A DNA stretch of 64,000 bases from NCBI GenBank assembly GCA_964016885.1, contig OZ024740.1, positions 419,430,001 through 419,494,000 on the forward strand, read 5' to 3'. Shown here piece by piece: positions 9,549 through 64,000 of this stretch. Under the pieces are notes generated by a model. The model saw nothing but the letters and a program-made list of their open reading frames with translations. It did no database searches and was not told the DNA's origin. Origin of the DNA: Eledone cirrhosa (Eukaryota). The position numbers and the translations under genes are program-made. Each line of letters starts with the position of its first letter. Position 1 is the first letter of the stretch.

Positions 9549-12375
9549 GATTCAGATTTCTAGAATTCTGCGACGCCAATGACATGTCGATATGTAACAC
9601 AAACTTCAAAAAACCCGACAACCACCTGATCACCTATAGATCAGGGGAGCATTCTAGTCAGATAGATTTTATCCTCATCAGAGGACGTGACAGATGGACG
9701 GTCGTAAACACAGAAGCCTACCCTAGTGAGGAATGTACCTCCCAACATAGCTTAGTTGACACGGTCAGAACTAGACGAACATGGAAACAGAGGCCAACCT
9801 GGAGAAGAAAGATCTGGAAGCTGAAAGCCCCCTCAGCATGTAACAGATTTAAAGATATTTTACTCAACGCCTACGACAGTAAAGAAGAACAGATAGAGAC
9901 ATTCAATGTAGAAGAGCACTGGGAGTTCCTAAAAAATAACTTACTAGAGGCGACGGATGAGGTCTGTGGCTGGAGTAAGACCACAAGCAGGGGGAGAGTG
10001 GCTTGGTGGTGGAACAATAAGGTAGATGAGGCAGTTAAGGCCAAGAGACAGGCATGGAAAGAATGGAAGAACGGGGGGAGCAGGGTACATTACATAGAGA
10101 CCAAGAGGGAAGCTAGGCGACAAGTATACTTAGCTAGGAGGGAAGCAGAGGATAGAAAATTCAAGCATGTTTTGCAACGTGAGGACCAGAAACAGGAGGT
10201 GTTCAAGATTGCGAGTCAGTGTGTCAGAGAGAATTGTGATGTCATTGGAGAGAAGTGTATCCGGAATGATAAAGGTGAGCTTTCCCTCACAAGTGCTGAG
10301 AAGAAAGATGCATGGAAGAGCCATTATGATAGATTACTAAATGAGGAGAATGCATGGGAAGAAGAGACCCTACCACAAGTAACCCTATAGAGGGGCCAGC
10401 AGTACAAGTCAGCGGCAGCGTAGTAAGTAAAGCAATCAAAGATATGAAGATGGGGAAGGCAACCGGTCCATTGGCTATAGCTGCCGAGATGCTGAAGGCA
10501 TCTGGGTCTGTAGGTCACACTATAACCACACGTATTGTTAACCAGGTAATACTAGAAGGTGTCATACCAAAAGATTGGTGCAGTAGCATCATTGTCAACT
10601 GCTACAAAGGTAAAGGTGATGCACTAGATAGAGGAAACTATAGAGGTATAAAGCTGATGGACCAGGTCATGAAAATAACAGAAAGAGTTATAGCACAGTT
10701 GATTAGGCACCGGGTGAAACTAGATGAGATGCAATTTGGGCTTGTACCAGGAAGAGGCACCACTGATGCCCTCTTCCTTTGAGGCAATTACAGGAAAAGT
10801 ATCTAGCTAAAAGTAAGCCACTCTACTTGGCATTCGTCGATCTCGAGAAAGCCTTTGACAGAGTTCCACGTGCTGTATGTAATCTGGTGGGCTCTTAGAA
10901 AACTAGGAGTAGATGAATGGCTTGTGAAAGCTGTACAAGCCATGTATAGAGGAGCAGTCGGCAAAGTTAGGATTAGCAATGAGTATAGTGAGGAATTTAG
11001 CATACAGGTTGGTGTCCACCAGGGCTCTGTTCTTAGCCCTCTCCTGTTCATCATAGTCCTGCAGGCAATAACGGAGGAGTTTAAGACTGGATGCCCATGG
11101 GAACTCCTGTATGCTGATGACCTCGCACTTATAGCTGAATCTATGGTAGAACTAGAGAAGAAATTCCAAACTTGGAAGCAGGGACTAGAAAGAAAGGGTC
11201 TCAAAGTCAACATCACAAAGACTAAGGTCCTTGTAAGTAGACGAGAAAACAGAACCCAGACCCCCTCAGGGAAATGGCCTTGCTCAGTATGTAGGAAAGG
11301 TGTAGGTAGGAACTCCATTCTCTGCCCCAAATGCAAACAATAGGTACACAAGAGATGTAGCGGGATCTCAGGAAGCTTAATTTAGAATGTAGGCTTCACA
11401 TGCAGCAGCTGTGCTGGGACAGCAAGCAGCAAATAGCCACAGGAAACAAGTATCACCAATCTCTGGGAGGGCTCTGTAGAAACAGTAGACAGCTTCTGCT
11501 ACCTAGGTGACCGAATTAGCAGCGGAGGTGGGTGTTCAGAAAGTACAATAACTAGGGTAAGAATGGGATGGAAGAAGTTCAGGGAACTACTGCCACTGCT
11601 AGCTGCAAAAGGCTTCTCCCTCAAAATGAAAGGCAGACTGTATGATGCGTGTATCCGAACAGCAATGTTACATGGTAGTGAGACCTGGGTGCTGAAGGTG
11701 AAAGACTTACGTAGATTAGAGAGAAACGAAGCCTGCATGCTCCGATGGATGTGTAATAGTAATATACACGAATGACAAAGCATAAATGAATTGAGAGAGA
11801 GACTGAGCATAAGAGGAATCAAATGCTGTGTGCAGGAGAGGCGGTTGCGTTGGTATGGACATGTGATGCGTATGAAGGATGACAGCTGCATAAAAAGGTG
11901 CAGAGCACTAGAAGTTGATGGAAACCGCGGAGTGGGGAGACCCAAGAAGACCTGGGATGAGGTGATAAAAGTCGACCGTACCCAATTACACCTCTCAAAG
12001 GCGATGACACACGACCGTGACCTCTGGTGTCACGCAGTAATACAGAGTACCCGACCTCCCATGGGTACAAGCTGAAGCATATAGATAATATGCCCCCACA
12101 CCCTCCCACTGCAAGTGGTCGTGGAGGTGCTACAGCAAAAAAGCACCCAGCCCACACTGTAAAGTGGACGTGTAGGCGCCACGGAAAAAAAGCACCCAGC
12201 ACTCACTGTAAATGAGGTTTGTGTTAGGAAGGGCATCCAGCTGTAGAAATCAAGCCAAAATCAGTTCCTGTATGAGCAAGGCATGGTCAGCCGGCCAGAC
12301 ACTGCCCACAACAGGACAACCCGTCTAACCCATGCTAGCATGGAAGAACGGACGTAAAACGGTGATGATGATGAT
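9546..12375 (+). mobile_element. RTE-clade LINE, 5'-truncated and decayed (APE C-terminus, RT, 3' UTR, (GAT)n tail) inserted in (TA)n
   Basis: Frameshifted ORF pieces: TYRSGEHSSQIDFIL (APE), WWWNNKV, KGKGDALDRGNYRGIKL, QFGLVPGRGTTDA, GVHQGSVLSPLLF, LLYADDL (RT), RRLRWYGHVMR, GRPKKTW. Ends in gatgatgatgat. (TA)n on both sides. Confidence 0.95.
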
Positions 12376-17924: not shown

Positions 17925-18240
17925 TATGCGAAGCTCAGAGGGTCACTCCAGGTAGAACCGCTACTTCTCCAAATTAAGATACACCTCTGGTACTATGGGC
18001 ATGTGGTTAGAATGTCTCAGGAAAGAATCGCTGGGCAGATTTTATGAGCAAAAGCAATTGGCAGGAGATCCAGAGGTTGACCCTGAGCAATATGGTTAGA
18101 TAATATCCATGAGCTTGGCTGGTCTCACTTGGGGATCCAGCCGGATCAGTTGGAGACAGTTGCTTCTGACAGGACCCGCTGGAAGGAGTGTTTGAGGACT
18201 CTTCCCCCATGACCAACTCAGGAATAAGTAGATGAAGAAG
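17925..18240 (+). mobile_element. 3' fragment of a second RTE family
   Basis: Decayed peptide YYGHVVRMSQERIA...WLDNIHELGWSHLGIQPDQLETVASDR. Confidence 0.7.
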
Positions 18241-53560: not shown

Positions 53561-54327
53561 AATCGAATGCTTTTACTGTTAAGTTGGCAGATGCTGAGAA
53601 GTGAAAGTATTGAAAAACTAAGAAAGTGTATCATTTGATATAAATATCCAGCCTCCGATGAAATTTCTGCTGTCATCTTATAAAATTGCCTGTGATACAT
53701 TGATTGACTGACCGGAATATGACCCTCATCAGGCTGCATTTTTAATGGGATCATTATACAATTTCAAATTTTCCTTCAAATTACAACATGGAACTAATTG
53801 CACTGCGATACCACCTCTCAGCTCCATATATTTTCCACCGTTTTAAAACAGAATTCTTCCCCCTTGGATCATAAATCAACTAATCAGATTTCTAAATAGT
53901 TTCTTAATTTTTAACAATGAATACTTAAAGCATTTATTATAAATATTATTTACCAACTTTTCTTAAACATTGGTTTTCTGGGGTTTTTTTGTTCTCTTTT
54001 GTTTTTTTTTGTTTTTTTTGTTTATGCAAGAAAATGATCCCTAAGCTAAACCAACTAGAATACTGTTGGATAATCAATGGATTTAATGTGATCTCATTTT
54101 CTGCAAATATTTATATTTCTTGCAATCTTGCAATGTTTTCTGTTCCCTCCTCCTCCTCTATTCCTGCTAATTGTTACCTCAGGCATGAATAATCTTCACT
54201 GTATTAACTAAATTGATTTACAAGATTTACTAGTTTTCCTTCAGTTGTTCATTGGATCCAGTTCCTCTTTGATACTACTTAATTTATTTCATTAGCTCGA
54301 GTTTCAGATTTCGTCTCAGCTGGTACC

Positions 54328-55815
54328 ATGCCTTTCAATTTGTTACAAAGGTTACGGTCTGTTAATCGTAAACTGATAATTATTTCTGGTTTAATTTATT
54401 TATCACTTGTTTTTTTATTCCACGGTAGACTAGAATTTGAACAGCAACTTGATAACCGTTTTAAAACAGTTTTTTTCAAAAGAAACCCTGTTCATTTATA
54501 CTTAAGAAAAAACAGCTCTGCAACAAGTATTTCCCAATCATCACATTCCTCATTGAAAAATAAAATGGAATTACATGTTAGCAATATCACTATCAAACCA
54601 CATGTCCATGTTCAAGCAAACATCCTTAATTTAACTTTATCTGATAAAAATATAAACAGCACTGAAGCACCAAATTATAAAAACTGTTATCAGTCTTCTT
54701 CCAATGTTGGCAACAATACATTCCACCGGATATCAGATGGTATATTTATTTATTCTGCATATTTGGATGATCGTCACACCGCTCCATTTGTTCGTGTCAT
54801 GGCCATTATAGCACAGCGTAAATATAAACTTCGATATTTCTGTCATTTTCCTGGCAATTTTTGGACTGATGGTCTTGTATATCAAATGTGTGAAAACCAC
54901 AATAAACATTTTGGCGGTTATATAATATCTTGCCCTCTACCACTTTTAAAACCTGACCAACATAAATTATTCTGTTCTGTGGGTATATCTTTAAAAAAAA
55001 AAACTGACACAAATCACAATTCATTCATTCCAATTACAAAGATTCGTACAAATAGTCAACCTTTTAGCTACGGAATCTGCATTCCACCATTGTTTGGTAA
55101 TATATCCCAAGAACACTTAGTTGAGTATATTGAGTTGTCCAAATTATTAGGTGTGCAACACCTGTACTTTTACAGTTTTCGTTTGTCTGATGCTGCTACT
55201 CACGTTTTGGAGTATTATGAAAAGCAAAACACAGTAACTATAATTCCTTGGAAGCTGCCTGTTGAGATTCATGATAATACTATATGGTACAATGGTCAAC
55301 TGATTGCTCATAATGACTGTTTATATCGATCAATGAGTCAAGTGAAAATGGTAGCATTCAATGACCTTGATGAATTTATCATTCCACACAATAGTTCAAC
55401 ATGGACAGGTTTCGTTAATAAACTAAGTGGTGAAAATATTTGTGGCTTTTCATTTTGGAGTGCATTTTTTGATCCCTCCACAGGAAGACCACATCCTTCT
55501 GGATTGTTTACTATGAGTCAAACTGGCCGCTCAGCGAAGTTCAGTCAAGTGCGAACAAAAGTACTTGTTGAACCATTGAAAATATTTGAAGTTGGTATAC
55601 ATCATGTAAGTAAACCAAATGAAGAGTATTACAAGATGTTGAGAGTGGACACAAACATTGCATTCCTACATCATTATAGAAAATGTGTTTCAAATTATGG
55701 CATGAAATGTGATAAATTTATACCTGATAGGGCCATATACCGATATTTTGATGATTTGAAGACTGCTTTTGATTCACAGTTAAAAATAATACGCCAAATA
55801 AATTCCACTGCTTAA
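54328..55815 (+). CDS. Glycosyltransferase family 92 (DUF23) protein, beta-1,4-galactosyltransferase GALT-1-like; single coding exon
   Basis: Uninterrupted 495-aa ORF. N-terminal basic tail and hydrophobic signal-anchor (LIIISGLIYLSLVFLF), Ser-rich stem, then GT92-typical motifs IYSAYLDDR, CIPPLFG, EYIELSKLLGV, QLIAHNDCLYR, FNDLDEFIIP (DxD), RTKVLVEP, GIHHV, LHHYR. Confidence 0.9.
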   Translation: MPFNLLQRLRSVNRKLIIISGLIYLSLVFLFHGRLEFEQQLDNRFKTVFFKRNPVHLYLRKNSSATSISQSSHSSLKNKMELHVSNITIKPHVHVQANILNLTLSDKNINSTEAPNYKNCYQSSSNVGNNTFHRISDGIFIYSAYLDDRHTAPFVRVMAIIAQRKYKLRYFCHFPGNFWTDGLVYQMCENHNKHFGGYIISCPLPLLKPDQHKLFCSVGISLKKKTDTNHNSFIPITKIRTNSQPFSYGICIPPLFGNISQEHLVEYIELSKLLGVQHLYFYSFRLSDAATHVLEYYEKQNTVTIIPWKLPVEIHDNTIWYNGQLIAHNDCLYRSMSQVKMVAFNDLDEFIIPHNSSTWTGFVNKLSGENICGFSFWSAFFDPSTGRPHPSGLFTMSQTGRSAKFSQVRTKVLVEPLKIFEVGIHHVSKPNEEYYKMLRVDTNIAFLHHYRKCVSNYGMKCDKFIPDRAIYRYFDDLKTAFDSQLKIIRQINSTA

Positions 55816-56156
55816 GTTTTTATAGTTTTTTTCTTTTTATTGCAAATTTAACTCTTGAATGTCTAATATGTCTTTATGAAAGTTTTATATCATCTGCTTT
55901 TCTCATACACAAAACATTCAATTACTTATGAAGTAGCATGGTTTTTACTTCTGCAGATTATACAACTTTTCCATGTATAGACAAATATTTCTCAACTGCT
56001 CTGTATGTAGAAAATAACTCACTTCTCACATATAATGCACGTGTGTTTGTCTGTATTGGTGTAAGTATGTATGTGTATATGTATGTATGTGTGTGTATGC
56101 ATATGTGTGAGTATGTATGTATTTATGCATGTGTATGTATGTTCTGGTTTCATTTG

Positions 56157-56475
56157 TGGCAGTATCGGTAGAGAGTCGGATGCTATGCTTTGACGCACAG
56201 TTACGGCCCTTGCAATTCTGAGTTCGAATCCCGCTGAGGTTAACTTTGCTTTTCATCCTTACGGGGTCGATAAAATAAAGTACCAGTAATGCACTGGGTA
56301 TTTGCTGGCCTTGTGCCAAAAAGTAGAAACAATTATTTTATATACGGCTCTTGCCATTCTGAGTTCAAATCTCGCCGAGGTTAACTTTCTTTCATCCTTA
56401 CGGGGTCGATAAAATAAAGCACCAGTAATGCACTGGGGTAATTGCTGGCCTTGTGCCAAAAGTAGAAACAATTAT
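56157..56475 (+). mobile_element. Two tandem SINE family A copies downstream of the GT92 ORF
   Basis: 56157-56335 and 56345-56475. Confidence 0.9.
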
Positions 56476-56961
56476 TTTATAAATTTTTAACAATACAGAG
56501 AGTCGCTTTTTAACATAAACACAAGGCTCTTTCATAGGAATTTAGACATCAACTAGGTAAATATGTATGCATGCCTGCATGCATGTGTGTGTGCAGGTTT
56601 GGATGTTATTGTATGTGTGGATCTGTATGCTTTACTTTATATGTGTACACACGTTTATGTTTTGTATCTATATATGTATATATGCAGGTATGCATGTATG
56701 TGTGTATCATCATCATAATTGTTTAACGCCCATTTTCCATGCTAGCATGGTATGTGTGTGATGTATGTATTTATGCATATGTGTGTGTACGTATGTGTTT
56801 ATGTCTGTGTATATAGCGTGGAAGATAGACATTAAACGATGATGATGATATATAATTTTGAGTATGTGCTGGTTGTTTATTGACACCTCAGTATACAGGT
56901 TAGAGCACTTGTTTTTATATACACACACACACACACACACGCACACACATATATATGAAAA

Positions 56962-57353
56962 GATTCCGGACCCCGACGGCTGAGCTCTGGCCATTTCGAC
57001 AGCTATCGAACTAAGCCACTGGTATTAGAAAGGTGGAAATCTAGCTGAATTTATCAAGGGGTACAAGCACAAAAAGCAAAACAATCTAAACAAAAAATCT
57101 TAAAAGTTTGTTGTCTTTGTTCAATGATCTGGAATGTCGTAAACTATGTGCACAACATTCCAGGTCCCTGACCACTCCCCATCACAGTCAAGGAAGACAA
57201 CAAGCTTTTAAGATTTGTTTGCTTTTACTGCATGCCCATATATGGACTGTACCCCTTGATAAGTTCAGCTAGATTCCCTCCGTTCTAATACCGGTGGCTT
57301 AGTTTGGATCTAGTTGACGAAATGGCCGAAGCTCAGCCGTCAGGGTCCTGAAT
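56962..57353. mobile_element. ~390-bp foldback/MITE-like element with long imperfect inverted arms and two internal hairpins
   Basis: gattccggaccccgacggctgagct...tatcaaggggtaca versus tgtaccccttgata...agctcagccgtcagggtcctgaatc. Inner aaatcttaaaagtttgttgtctt/aagacaacaagcttttaagattt. A terminal fragment also lies at 12412-12452. Confidence 0.85.
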
Positions 57354-58000
57354 CATATTACCCACTCTACTATCCCAAGTACTCCAGAGTGTTATGGTCC
57401 ACCTGGTATCTTACATCTTTGTTATATATATATATATATATATACACACGCACACACACACGCACGTGTGTGCATATATATCATCATTTCATTTCATTTT
57501 ACGTCTGCTTTTCCCCTGCTTGCAAGGGTGGGACGGGAACTGATTCTGGCTTGATTTCTACAGCTGGATGCCCTTCCTAACACCAACCTCATTTACAGTG
57601 AGTGCTGGGTGCTTTTTTGCCGTGACACCTCCACGACAAAGCAGTGGAATGATATGGACCATCTCATTTCTAAATGATCATCTCATTTCTAAAGCTGAGT
57701 AAACTGGAACAATGTGAAATAAAGTGTCTTGCTCAAGGAAACAACACATCACCCGGTCTGAGAATTGAACTCACAACCTTTCGATTGCAAGGCCAATGCT
57801 CTAATCACTAAGCCATGTGCCTCCATATATATATGTATGCATGTGTTATATATATATATGTGTGCGTATGTCTGTATGTGTGGATATATATATATTGGAA
57901 AATGTGTGAGATCCTTGGTACAGTTAGGTATATTTGAAAAAAAGGAAAAGAATGACTTCACTTGTAGTTCTCAACAATTTGATTTAATTTTATAATCTTT

Positions 58001-58710
58001 CTTGGTTGTCCATCGTAAACGATGATGACGTCTTCTTTATTGTTGTTCCCGTCTGCCATGGGCACGAAGGTGGCTGTGGAGGCCGATCCTTGACTTGCAG
58101 GTCCGGGGACAGTGGGGGCAGGGGAAGAGACTGGAGTCAGACTGGCAACTCCCAGAGATTACCTCCACCTCTCGCCCATCTCCGCAGGGCTTTGGGAGTG
58201 CACGCTAAAGAAGAAACCTGTGCGGGAAAGGTTTATAGTGGGAGGGCCAGTACACAGTGACGGTCCCACTCACTCGGCCGCAGAAGCCAGAATCCGGTGG
58301 TACGGAGGACCGTCACGACTAGGGACTTCCTTGGCTGCAGTTGATGGCCACGATGTCTGTAGTCCCTTGCCGTGCCCTAGCGCTCCACATCACTTGCTGT
58401 TGCAGCCTTCGTGACTGTTGAGATGATGTTGTCCTCCTCCACTCACTCCGCCGGGTCCAGTCTCGCATGCAGGGGCAGGCATCCCCTATCTAACTAACCG
58501 GGGGGTTTCAGACCTATCCGGCTACCCTCAACCTGGTTCGGCCCGCCAGCCAAGGCGGTTTACCGGGGTGTGGCCGCTGTCGCATGCTACAGCTTCTTGG
58601 AGCCACAGGTGAGAGCTGAGTGTCAGGTGGGATCCAATGCAGGACGAGCTGTCCTGAAAAGGGCATGGCTAGCCCTCCCTACAGAGGTATATGCCCCTCC
58701 CTGACACCCC
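58001..58710 (-). mobile_element. Non-autonomous, internally deleted RTE (BovB-like) element: 5' UTR joined to the extreme 3' end
   Basis: GC-rich island. The minus strand ends with LFPCPHCPRTCKSRIGLHSHLRAHGRREQQ* (58129-58037, C2H2 motif typical of RTE ORF ends), then a catcgt-tt-acgatg stem-loop and a short caa-like tail. No EN or RT sequence lies between the ends. Confidence 0.8.
58527..58710 (-). ncRNA. HDV-like self-cleaving ribozyme at the element 5' end
   Basis: P1 GGGGUGU(58710-58704)/ACACCCC(58571-58565); P2 CUCACCUGU/ACCAGGUUGAG (bulged); P3 GGC/GCC; L3 starts UCC; GG directly after P1' (P1.1); P4 CCGCC/GGCGG; J4/2 G-C-C-G-A with putative catalytic C at 58541. Confidence 0.8.
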
Positions 58711-59606
58711 AAGCATATACACATGTATATACATACACATACATATGTACATGTGTATATACATATTTACACATTTGTGGATGGCCGTTGACTCTTACGA
58801 GTTCTTCCGCCCTTTGTCAGGTTTTGTTTTTTGTCCTGCAGGGTGTCCAAAATCACCCTCCTCACCAAGTAAACTTGGTGCGGTTGCCAGTTTAGTCGTC
58901 GACGACCCGACCATGCGACAGGTTGTACTGGTTTACATGTTACCAGTAGCACTCAAGAGTGACCTGACAAGAAATTTTATAATATAAAATTAAATCAAAT
59001 TGTTTAGAACTAGAAGTGAAGTCATTCTTTTCTTTTTTTTTCAAATATCTCTATATATATATCATCATCATCATCTTCGTTTAACGTCCATTTTCCACGC
59101 TAGATGGGTTAGACGGGAGTTGTTCCACTTGAGGCAAGGTTGGTCGGGTGACCATGTCTCGCTCATATAGGACTATCTGGCAGGTTTTCTACTGCTGGAT
59201 GCCCTTCCTAACACCAACCACATTTACAGTGTGGAACTGGGAACTTTTTACCGTGTTACCTACACAGCCACATTACAGTGTGGACTGTGTGTGTTTTTTG
59301 TCGTGACACCTACACGATCTCGATCTCATTTTCTTGTGCTGTTGGTGGGAGTGGGAGGATAGGGTAGGGGTAATATGTGTGTGTGTGTGTGTGTGTGTGT
59401 AAAATTATAGAAAAGATAGAAGGGAAGAGATAAGGATTTTGTCAATATGTTATTGTACATCATAACTCACATGCATTAAGATAAGTAATTCCAATTTATG
59501 CATCAACATTTATTTAAATAACTTTGTATATTTAAAGTTTATACTTTATTCAGTTCTAGTAGAGTTGTAGTTTATATAAAACATTGTATTAGAGTTAAGC
59601 TGTCAT

Positions 59607-60030
59607 GGATTGGCAGTATCTGTAGAGTGTCTGACACCATGCTTTGCAGCATGGAGTTATGGCCTTTTACATTCTGAGTTAAAATCCCACCGAGGTTAAC
59701 TTTGCCTTTCATCCTTATGGGGTTGATAAAATAAAGTACCAGTAATGCATTGGGATAATTGCTGGCTTTGTACCAAAAGTAGAAAGAATTATTATTATAC
59801 ATTACTATTCTGTAATATTGTATACCTAGAAAAGACCATGTTAGGCATTGACAGTAACGGTAGAGGGTCGGAAGTCATGCGTTGCAGCACAGAGTTACGC
59901 CACTTTACGGTCTGAGTTCAAATCCTGCCGACGTAAACTTTGCTTTTCCTCTTTACAGGGTCGATAAAATAAAGCACCAGTAATGCACTGGGGTAATTGC
60001 TAGCCTTGTACCAAAACAAGAAACAATTAT
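59607..60030 (+). mobile_element. Two SINE family A copies
   Basis: 59607-59795 and 59845-60030. Confidence 0.85.
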
Positions 60031-61483
60031 TTACTATATATTATAATGATGTCTAGAACAATATCATATATGGAGCCATGTGAATTAGTAGGAATGAAAG
60101 TTGCTATTTTCCACTCCTATGTCTAGAACGTTACTCACAAACTCTCATTCTTATTTGCATATATTATGTACTGTTTGGTAATGATGTATGTATAGAAAAA
60201 AACGTGTTTCTCGTCATTATTTGTCATCATGATTTCATCAAATTTGTGAATTTCTTATCTACCACCAGGTGTACACCTGCGTTCCTGAGGTGTGTGAAAC
60301 CCTGTAGAGTTGTGCTTTTATCATCATTATCATCACTATAATAATAATAATAATTGTTTCTACTTTTGGCACAAGGCCAGCAATTACCCAGTGTATTACT
60401 GGTACTTTATTTTATCGACCCCGTAAGGATGAAAGGCAAAGTTAACCTCGACGGGATTTGAACTCAGTCTGTAAAGGGACGTAACTATGCTAGAAAGCAT
60501 GGCATCCGACTCTCTACCGATACTGCCAATCCACTCCCCTTAATAATAATTAATAAATAATGATAATAATAATGGCCCAATCTGACTACACTTTTCTAAG
60601 TAGAAGGAAGGAAACTGAGAGAGGGCACTTTTAATGTCCATGAAGTAATAGAGTAATCTGGGCCTTTGTGTGGGGTTTCTCCCTGGGATAGCCCTAAAGT
60701 GTAGTCCCCACTATTCAGGGAACTTGTCTTTATTGACATTTATTGTTTTTTTCCTATTCTTATGTATATTTATTACAATATCTATTATTGTTATTCTGTG
60801 TTCACTTCAGTGATTTCCCCTTTCTTTTATTTAATGTAAACCTCACTTTCTGTTGTCTTTGCCCCCAATGTCCTGGACCCTTGTGGCTCACAAAAAAATA
60901 TTATTATTATTAGAGAAGTGGATTGGCAGAATCCAATGTGTTACAGTATTTAATTCTAGCTCTTTACATTGTGAGTTCAAATCTGGCCAAGGTCAACTTT
61001 GCTTTCACCCTTTCAAAGGGTCGATAAAATAAAGTACTAGTCAAATACTTAGGTCAATGTAACTGACTTACCCCCGTCCCCTCCTCATCACAACAAATTG
61101 CTAACCTGGTGCCGAAATTAGAAACCATTGTTAATGCCTGCATTATTTGTTTTCATTCTCTCTGTTCAAATCCCATCAGTCAACTTTACCTTCCATCCTG
61201 ATGTTCCCCTTCCCCTAAATTACTGAACTTGTGCTTATCTAAGAAATTATTATTCTGTGAAACTTCTTTTGAATTCTTCTTTCTCAAATCATGCCAAGGG
61301 TCAAGCTGACACCTTAGGCAAAATCACACATTTTACAATCGATTCTCATACAAGGGCACTAACAGTAAATGTCTTTGCAAGCTTTTAAATTGATAATGCC
61401 CTTCTTAGGCCATTGACAGTGCCAGTCAGCTTTATTTTCTGTATCTCTTGCAAAGAATGCTTTCCAGATTATTATCATTATTA

Positions 61484-62090
61484 AGGGCGGTTAATTGGCA
61501 GCATCGGTAGAGCGTTGGACACCATGCTTTACAGCATAGAGTTATGACCCTTTACGTTCTGTGTTCAAATCCCGCCATGGTTAACTTTGCCCTTCATCCT
61601 TACAGGGTCAATAAAATAAAGTACCAGTAATGCACTGGGATAATTGCTGGCCTTGTGCCAAAAGTAGAAACAATTATCATTATTATTATTATTATTAAAC
61701 ATCCTTGGACGGTGAATTGGCAGTATCAGTAGAGGGTCGGACACCATGCTTTGACGCATGGAGTTACGGCCCTTGCCATTCTGAGTTCAAATCCCGTCGA
61801 GGTTAACTTTGCTTTTCATCCTTACGGGGTCGATAAAATACCAGTAATGTACTGGGTAATTGCTGGCCTTGTGCCAATAGTAGAAACAATTATTAAACAT
61901 CCTTTGTGATATATAGTGACGTCCCTTTACATTGTGTTAAAATCCCGCAAAGGTTAGCTTTGCCTTTCATTCTTACAGGGGTCGATAAAATAAAGCACTA
62001 GTAATGCACTGGGGTCAATTTAATTGACTTTCCCCTCCTCCAAAATTGTTGGCCTTGTACCTAAATCTTAAACTATTATTATTATTATTA
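61484..62090 (+). mobile_element. Three tandem SINE family A copies
   Basis: 61484-61695, 61708-61893, 61915-62090. Confidence 0.9.
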
Positions 62091-64000
62091 TTTGCAAAAA
62101 ATATATATATTTTCAATTATTCAAAGAGTTGTCTAGTCAAGTGCCACAAGCCCTTCTTTGATATTAAAATTAAATTTCCGCTTCAGATCTATATTTTATA
62201 AAAAATATAAGTTTACATATCTGCATAGTGTCAACATTCGTCATATCGATTTTATGGATGGTATCTTTCATTATCATTCTGTCGTGTCAAACCAATTTTT
62301 CTAACAAAATTTCAAAATGAAAACAGGGGGGAAATTTATGTAAACTCACATAGACTTTTATTTTTAACATCAAAACATTCCTCTTGTTCAGAAACAGTCT
62401 TTCATCTATCTTCTGTATTTTGCATTTTATCATTTTATCATATTATTGTGATAATTGTACATTAATACATGAGGTAAATATTCCAATGATGAGTTACTTT
62501 CTCCATAATATAGTTTTTTCACCATTCTTAAATAAAGATGTAGCTGTGAATTGGTAGTCATTAGAATGTTGAATAGAGTGCTTTGCAGAATTATTTTCGG
62601 CTCTCTGCTTTTGATTCACAGTTCAAATTCTGTTGAGATCAACTTTGCCTTTCATCCATTTGAGGTCGATAAAGAACCAGTCTAGTACTGGGGTCAATTC
62701 TTCCTCTATATCGCTTTCTCAATTTAATTCTCTCACTTTCTATCCTTCTCTGTATTCAGACCAGGAGAGGGGATGGGCTCTGCCAGGTATATATATATAA
62801 AAAAGCCCTAAAATTACAATATGCCAATATGGTACCCCTATGATTCCCTTGGGAGTTAAGGGGCTTTTACTTAATTAAAAATTTTAATTCATACACGTGC
62901 ATACACACATACATGGGCAAATATACACATACACACACGTGTGTACATGCAGTGTGTATCAACACAGATTATAGGCAAAAGTGCCTGAGAGGAGTGTTCT
63001 ATCCATCAATTTGCCCCACCTTTTCTTTAGCCTTACCCCACTCCATAACATTTTGCTCCTACTCCCTTTTGTATTGAAGTTTTCCATATCTATCTACGAC
63101 CTCTTACCTAAATTTAGTTTCGGCTATATATTGTATAAGTTTCACCTGAACATCACTCTTTTGATAAGCAGGTAACTTTTCTCTTTTACTTACTAGGATC
63201 TTAGTCTTTGTTGGGTGACTTTAAGACCCCTGCTTTCCATGTTTGGAATTTCTCCCTCCCCCCCCCCCCATCTATCTTTCTCTCTAGAGAGAGAGATTAT
63301 ATATATATATTGGTGTTAGGAAGGACATCCAGCCGTAGAAAACCTGCAGACAGTCCTATACAAGCAAGACAACCAATCTTGCCTCACGTGGGACAATTCC
63401 CGTCTAAACCCATGCTAGCATGGAAGATAGACGTTAAACGATGTTGATGATGATGATGATATGTATATATTGGTATAACTTAACAGCTATAAGGATATGT
63501 GTGTGTTCCTTTATCTGCACTTATCTTATTAATGCTTACCATATATACTTGAATATAGCCAAGGAATATATGGCCAAAAGGTTAATGGCAAAATAGGTTT
63601 GGGTGGTCGGCTTATATTTGGGGTCAATATTTTACCAATTTTCACCAACTTCAAATTCTACATAAATAAGGTGCTAAGATATCTGGAGTGATTATTTTAC
63701 AAGGAAACATTGGTTTTCTACATTTACTACATCATCAATAGTGTTATTTATGCATTCCCTTGAAAATATTTTTAACAATTTTTTTATAATTTGAATGCTT
63801 TAATGCATAAATATCCCATACACATCCACTCATGTGCACACGCATCACACGTGCATATGTGAACACATACATGTTTTTCTCAGACTATATTTTCTTTCAA
63901 TCTTCTGATTTGATTTTATTGCTCTCACACTCTCCCCATGTTCTCGCATTGCCTCGCCTCTCCTACTCTATGAATTCCTTTACAAAGTTCTCTTATTCAA

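Follow-up and report, generated by a model that had tools for sequence, protein, structure and literature searches.

A predicted HDV-like ribozyme with a hairpin in L3 at the 5′ end of an internally deleted RTE-type element of Eledone cirrhosa

Introduction

Does the GC-rich repeat near position 58,600 of this Eledone cirrhosa DNA begin with a self-cleaving ribozyme of the hepatitis delta virus (HDV) type, even though a hairpin sits in its L3, and what kind of element carries it? In the HDV active site, L3 counts as a short part of fixed form, and descriptors used for searching build on that: in HDV it is 7–8 nt long, and its trans G25–U20 wobble is crucial in the active site (10.1101/2022.09.22.508989). 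The original prediction, made from the letters of the sequence, placed here an HDV-like ribozyme with an extra hairpin in L3 and took it to define the 5′ end of a non-autonomous RTE element. Below, "the window" is the whole 64,000-nt stretch of DNA that was analysed, and the element and its ribozyme fold are read on the minus strand.

Results

Fold, chance and existing models

All parts of the HDV nested double pseudoknot (P1, P1.1, P2, P3 and P4) were found in order on the minus strand, where they had been predicted:

58524..58710, minus: HDV-like ribozyme fold, whole
58704..58710, minus: P1 5′ strand, in a single copy in the window; if P1 forms, cleavage is predicted 5′ of G58710
58616..58703, minus: J1/2 domain (P1.2 stem-loop); in the predicted fold, 58623–58618 at its 3′ end forms Alt-P1 with the P1 5′ strand
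58606..58615, minus: P2 5′ strand (extended P2, about 11 bp), pairing with 58535–58525 with one bulged U
58602..58604, minus: P3 5′ strand, GGC
58594..58601, minus: L3 5′ part, with U58601 (U20 equivalent), the P1.1 CC (58600–58599) and the invariant G58596 at canonical G25 spacing
58576..58593, minus: hairpin inserted in L3, 5 bp and an 8-nt loop; the invariant G58575 follows
58565..58574, minus: P3 3′ strand (58574–58572) and P1 3′ strand (58571–58565)
58543..58564, minus: P1.1 GG (58564–58563), J1.1/4 UAAA and P4 hairpin (58558–58543)
58537..58542, minus: J4/2, with C58541 as the conserved C75 equivalent; all three relatives described below have other residues at 58540 and 58539
58524..58536, minus: unpaired conserved C58536 and P2 3′ strand

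The GC-rich element also starts at 58710 as predicted, the GC fraction rising from 0.27 (58711–58780) to 0.61 (58527–58710). By topology and conserved residues, the fold is placed with the HDV-like ribozymes. Like both HDV ribozymes (genomic and antigenomic) and CPEB3, it has a G+1, a 7-bp P1, a 3-bp P3 ending in C–G, two C–G pairs in P1.1, the U..G residues in L3 and C-N-R-A in J4/2, but the L3 of this group is 26–29 nt long (27 nt in the window, 58601–58575) rather than 7–8 nt. A 7–8-nt L3 is typical of the class and used in descriptors, and is not part of a mechanistic definition; none of our four sequences has one.

A relaxed descriptor (L3 of 7–40 nt, J1/2 of up to 150 nt), written after the sequence had been seen, matches once in the 64-kb window and in none of 3000 dinucleotide shuffles of the element or 100 shuffles of the window. 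With L3 limited to 9 nt, it finds nothing in the window. Rfam gave 43 matches at E ≤ 10 across 54000–64000, none to a ribozyme family, HDV-type models included, and near the element only low-complexity, miRNA-type matches. The variant is thus overlooked by Rfam and by a short-L3 (≤9 nt) descriptor, as had been claimed for standard descriptors. The pseudoknot-free fold by itself has only modest stability (z −1.66; 10 of 200 shuffles equal or better), so that it is topology and covariation, rather than energy, that support it. When the insert is shuffled by mononucleotides, its hairpin alone appears in 0.6% of cases. A chance arrangement inside a GC-rich repeat would fit this weak z score and a descriptor drawn up after the fact, but it is opposed by the empty shuffles and by the covariation across independent families reported next, on which basis we reject it as having a negligible probability.

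Relatives and covariation

The search for relatives used a pattern that fixed P3, UCC and GG-UAAAC and left the L3 interior free, admitting 9–39 nt. It found seven metagenome loci, four of which are homologs (L004, L005, L006 and L007); since L004 and L005 are one insertion (99.9% identical over 1310 nt), these represent three independent families. The pattern had 14 matches in prokaryote genomes and 1 and 3 in viral contigs, with no homolog in either, and a protein scan of the viral contigs was also empty. A 7-bp P1 partner lies upstream in all four homologs versus none of 18 non-homologous matches (metagenome, viral and prokaryote). The relaxed descriptor recovers three of the four homolog loci, missing L007, and Rfam has no match to L004, L006 or L007 at E ≤ 1. 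The ribozymes of L004 and L006 sit upstream of APE-endonuclease ORFs; no RTE-type ORF was found downstream in L007.

Between families the core is 68–86% identical, versus 32–47% for J1/2. When the structure of the window copy is laid over the four distinct sequences (window, L004, L006 and L007; n = 4), 106 of 108 cells are paired, and 7 of 27 pairs show two-sided changes: three in P2, two in P4 and two in the L3 hairpin. No shuffle among 500 scored as high, and slid controls were 33–44% paired. P3, P1.1 and a portion of the P1 3′ strand, which the pattern fixed, carry no covariation signal. In the hairpin both two-sided changes come from L007, whose hairpin has one mismatch and is absent from the whole-molecule prediction (P = 0.0).

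The hairpin is nonetheless a conserved feature, present in the window copy and in three independent relatives, at the same position within an L3 of 26–29 nt in all four sequences (inside the 9–39 nt admitted). Relatives with a normal 7–8-nt L3 were out of reach of a pattern with this lower bound. A U (58605) precedes P3 and AC (58536–58537) precedes the P2 3′ strand in the window copy and likewise in L004, L006 and L007, which suggests a closing U–A pair with a conserved bulged C in P2.

Catalytic core and placement of the hairpin

The predicted catalytic cytosine, C58541, is invariant in all four sequences; it is identified as the conserved cytosine because the relatives read G-CUAAA-C where the window reads G-CCGAA-C. 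All four contain C-N-R-A in J4/2 (CUAA in the relatives, CCGA in the window copy), and none contains the stricter C-R-R-A given in PMC6326823. C58540 offers a second C-N-R-A register in the window copy and could mask the effect of a C58541U mutation. G+1 pairs with a pyrimidine at the base of P1, as G–C in three sequences and G–U in L007. L3 starts with UCCAAG, except in L006, whose UCCACG fits the U-C-C-N-C-G pattern of the designed-ribozyme descriptor in PMC6326823, which fixes U, C and G at positions of the U20/G25 region.

U58601 and G58596 stand at the canonical U20..G25 spacing, and a second invariant G, G58575, is a competing partner. Because the spacing is kept, the descriptor residues fit and the G25–U20 pair is crucial, the hairpin is most likely inserted 3′ of G58596, the putative G25 equivalent. 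HDV has loosely held residues on that side of L3. Alternatively, the same ribozyme may have another geometry, in which G58575 partners U58601 while the hairpin replaces U23–C24, stacks coaxially under P3 and possibly touches P4/L4. Folding does pair U58601 with G58575 and stack the hairpin on P3 (P 0.53–0.86 in three families), G58575 is invariant in four of four sequences (though the search pattern fixed that G), and in all four the hairpin loop begins with AG and L4 contains CU, a weak hint of a loop contact that covariation does not support. However, G58596 is equally invariant, was left free by the pattern and lies at the canonical distance from U20, and the cis U–G wobble of the nearest-neighbour model differs from the trans G25–U20 pair of the active site (10.1101/2022.09.22.508989). 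We regard this second geometry as rather unlikely and retain the insertion 3′ of G58596.

Host element

The fold opens an element whose two ends are separated by an internal deletion:

58005..58710, minus: bipartite non-autonomous RTE-type element, 706 nt (5′ UTR, C-terminal end of the ORF and short 3′ UTR; 3′ limit approximate)
58146..58523, minus: remaining 5′ UTR, which aligns colinearly with that of the intact L006 element
58037..58129, minus: final ~30 codons of an RTE-type ORF, with a C2H2-like motif, and the stop codon

About 380 nt of 5′ UTR follow the ribozyme fold before an abrupt switch to the last ~30 codons of the ORF, the deletion junction lying between 58146 and about 58129. Identity to the L006 5′ UTR is about 70% over 58622–58216 and 88% over 58170–58146, and the L006 C-terminus matches the window ORF piece. 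Since both ends match the L006 element, we read the window element as the two ends, 5′ and 3′, of an RTE-type LINE from which the coding region has been deleted; this agrees with the predicted pairing of an HDV-like fold with a non-autonomous RTE-type host. Among 27 candidate proteins, 24 match the window ORF piece and extend upstream into RT C-terminal sequence that the window element lacks. The L006 ORF (P0026) encodes a single 1090-aa protein with Exo_endo_phos (APE endonuclease), RVT_1 (RT) and a C-terminal C2H2 motif, and no separate ORF of at least 150 aa lies between the L006 ribozyme and this APE+RT ORF. The C2H2 motif is terminal in 73 of 84 relatives of at least 1000 aa. As in RTE-clade LINEs, the APE endonuclease and the RT of the parent type are encoded together in one ORF. 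The RTE label is a probable one, based on this architecture, on the hit name 'craniofacial development protein 2-like' and on motifs that we take to be of RTE type.

This organization resembles that of Bov-A, RTESINE1/2, WALLSI3 and MAR4, which according to PMC5786205 join an RTE LINE 5′ end to its extreme 3′ end across an internal deletion, with no small-RNA head; the same source (Kojima 2018) describes bipartite non-autonomous RTE elements as keeping the original 5′ end and states that they may carry a ribozyme. No target-site duplication was found around the window element, and neither the repeat comparison nor a scan with model R1 found a second copy in the 64-kb window. Model R1 gave one marginal 17-bit match in L017, which we take as chance. 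In a search of sequencing runs, 20 of the 23 runs listed contain part of the element and none at least half of its words; no RNA run is among those listed, and our conclusions draw on none of these runs.

The window is animal DNA, rich in AT and in microsatellites, with numerous short interspersed repeats whose tails may resemble octopus SINEs. A 66-bp inverted repeat (57930–57994 and 58983–59048, 94% identical, with no further copy in the window) flanks the element together with ~270 nt on its upstream side and may represent a fold-back or MITE-like element with the inner sequences inserted in its centre. Within the upstream part, 58781–58967 (minus) has 50% GC and no other copy in the window, and three or four hairpins are predicted in 58780–58880 (z −3.53; 2 of 200 shuffles as good). 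In the 5′ part of the segment lie a P2-like pair and a CUAA, with no fitting P3/L3, and the relaxed descriptor does not match the segment; it is possibly a second, decayed short retroelement. A single-exon ORF for a glycosyltransferase of family 92 (54283–55815, plus strand; PF01697, E 4.9e-43) has its end ~2.2 kb away from the element, which lies on the opposite strand. Two plus-strand segments (11626–12069 and 17943–18197) have weak tblastn matches (24–34% identity) to RT C-terminal regions and are, on these matches, assigned to old LINE fragments of other families.

Doubled P1 strand and state of the window copy

In two of the three independent families, L006 and L007, the P1 5′ strand occurs twice, 8–9 nt apart, with the second GGGGUGU upstream. 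These tandem doublings, with a 1–2-nt spacer, lie at 1380–1395 in L006 and 1657–1642 (minus) in L007. In all four sequences, folding predicts that the inner strand pairs with the 3′ end of J1/2, and freeing it would cost 12.4 kcal/mol in the window, 9.8 in L004, 8.4 in L006 and 8.3 in L007, while freeing the outer strand would cost 0.0 in L006 and 5.2 in L007; the P1 energy is −11.8 kcal/mol (−7.5 in L007), and all these folding energies ignore pseudoknots and Mg2+. As the inner copy closes the J1/2 stem in the relatives, the prediction is that the single strand of the window is sequestered too, which may make 58710 a secondary register. The proposal that G58710 is the G+1 of the family is not fully supported, given the second, upstream GGGGUGU in two of three relatives and the predicted pairing of the inner copy. 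The ORF of L004/L005 is open although the locus has one P1 strand, so that a second strand may be dispensable.

A second predicted trap results from the two J4/2 substitutions of the window copy, through which C58541 and C58540 pair with the P1.1 GG (4.4 kcal/mol). Pairing of the conserved C with the P1.1 GG has P = 0.93 in the window, versus 0.01 in L004, 0.01 in L006 and 0.33 in L007; the designs of PMC6326823 are made to avoid such mispairing between the J4/2 cytosine and P1.1. From these folding models, the window copy is probably a slow or dead relic. It may be a daughter of inner-strand cleavage by analogy with R2, for which cleavage at the inner duplicate, with the outer one lost in daughters, has been proposed (PMC3774820). 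Failure of this copy to cleave would not refute a family ribozyme, because it is predicted to misfold. A more doubtful view, though one with a sizeable minority chance, is that the window copy is active, G58710 is the true and sole cleavage site of the family, and the doubling in relatives arose as a by-product of the junction. In this copy every canonical pair is intact and Watson–Crick, the P1 energy (−11.8) comes near the cost of freeing its strand (12.4), L004/L005 combines a single strand with an open ORF, and R2 junctions produce duplicated P1 strands (PMC3774820). The two predicted traps, Alt-P1 and the conserved C paired with the P1.1 GG, speak against an active copy, as does doubling in two of three unrelated families with matching inner-strand pairing.

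Discussion

The analysis documents an HDV-like fold, its conservation and covariation, and its 5′ position on RTE-type elements. The best explanation as a whole, to which we would give about three chances in four on sequence evidence, is the 5′ HDV-like ribozyme of an RTE-type LINE lineage with a hairpin in L3, here in an internally deleted copy. The position matches that of the R2, R4, RTE, Baggins and L1Tc ribozymes, which lie at the 5′ end of their elements (PMC3774820, PMC6765202). A close architecture is that of drz-Agam-2, which has a nested double pseudoknot, a large structured J1/2 (P1.2), a P2 of ~11–12 bp and short linkers, the last shared by our sequences if the doubled strand is used; short linkers, a long P1.2 and an extended P2 speed drz-Agam-2 up by as much as three orders of magnitude, and the parts of that report available to us mention neither an insertion in L3 nor a doubled P1 strand (PMC4908430). 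In R2, as far as the account in PMC3774820 goes, variation affects J1/2, P4 and P1, and in L3 consists of altered spacing in one wasp element. Duplicated P1 strands with two possible cleavage sites have also been proposed for R2; there the duplicated strand is derived from the 28S target and unconstrained, whereas here the inner copy pairs with J1/2 in four of four sequences (PMC3774820). A full-text literature search, with the main RTE-ribozyme papers and their supplements (R2 structures included) outside its scope, found no description of an L3 hairpin; its one match on the theme of L3 insertion, a paper on CPEB3 crystal dimers, has none in L3.

By analogy with known LINE ribozymes (PMC6765202), the ribozyme would cut the element RNA out of a read-through transcript. 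The cut would define the 5′ end of the template, and the protein of an autonomous partner would reverse-transcribe it through the retained 3′ end. The equivalent of C58541 would act as the general acid, as precedent from HDV and from R2/RTE suggests. A fixed 17–20-nt hairpin 3′ of G58596 would keep the U20-C21-C22-N-N-G25 core spacing normal, and the L3 helix, whose conservation is observed, may project off the end of P3 as a peripheral stabilizer that takes no part in the chemistry. The complete 5′ end is probably doubled, such that the outer strand would form P1 and the inner strand would close the J1/2 stem, holding P1 and P2 together through short linkers as in drz-Agam-2; with one strand and two J4/2 substitutions, the window copy is probably impaired. 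The drz-Agam-2 ribozyme belongs to an RTE element.

Alternatively, the hairpin may inactivate or switch off catalysis, leaving the fold only as a 5′ protective, translation-initiation or protein-binding structure. L3 belongs to the active site, where G25–U20 is crucial (10.1101/2022.09.22.508989); the HDV-like folds of R2 and L1Tc are reported to aid translation and protein binding (PMC6765202), and 5′ protection is reported for such folds (PMC13708176). However, families with a J1/2 only 32–47% identical have all retained the cytosine, the UAA after it, the P1.1 pairs and G+1, and the window element has its boundary at the P1 5′ strand, as cleavage would give. A purely non-catalytic role appears improbable to us, and we continue with the ribozyme reading. 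An extension of it is speculative and has, in our estimate, about one chance in four: a distinct HDV-like subclass across animal RTE-type LINEs, with the L3 hairpin as a required sixth helix under P3 that braces P4, and with the doubled P1 giving two registers, the outer yielding intact, refoldable RNA and the inner yielding self-inhibited daughters.

The chemistry and the accepted biological role of LINE 5′ ribozymes would be unchanged by a natural lineage with an L3 helix. Such a lineage would mean that many retrotransposon ribozymes have been missed, and it would add L3 to J1/2 and P4 as a third place where insertions can be studied structurally and used in engineering. The doubled P1 strand would offer a direct test of how the cleavage register sets the 5′ end of a LINE copy.
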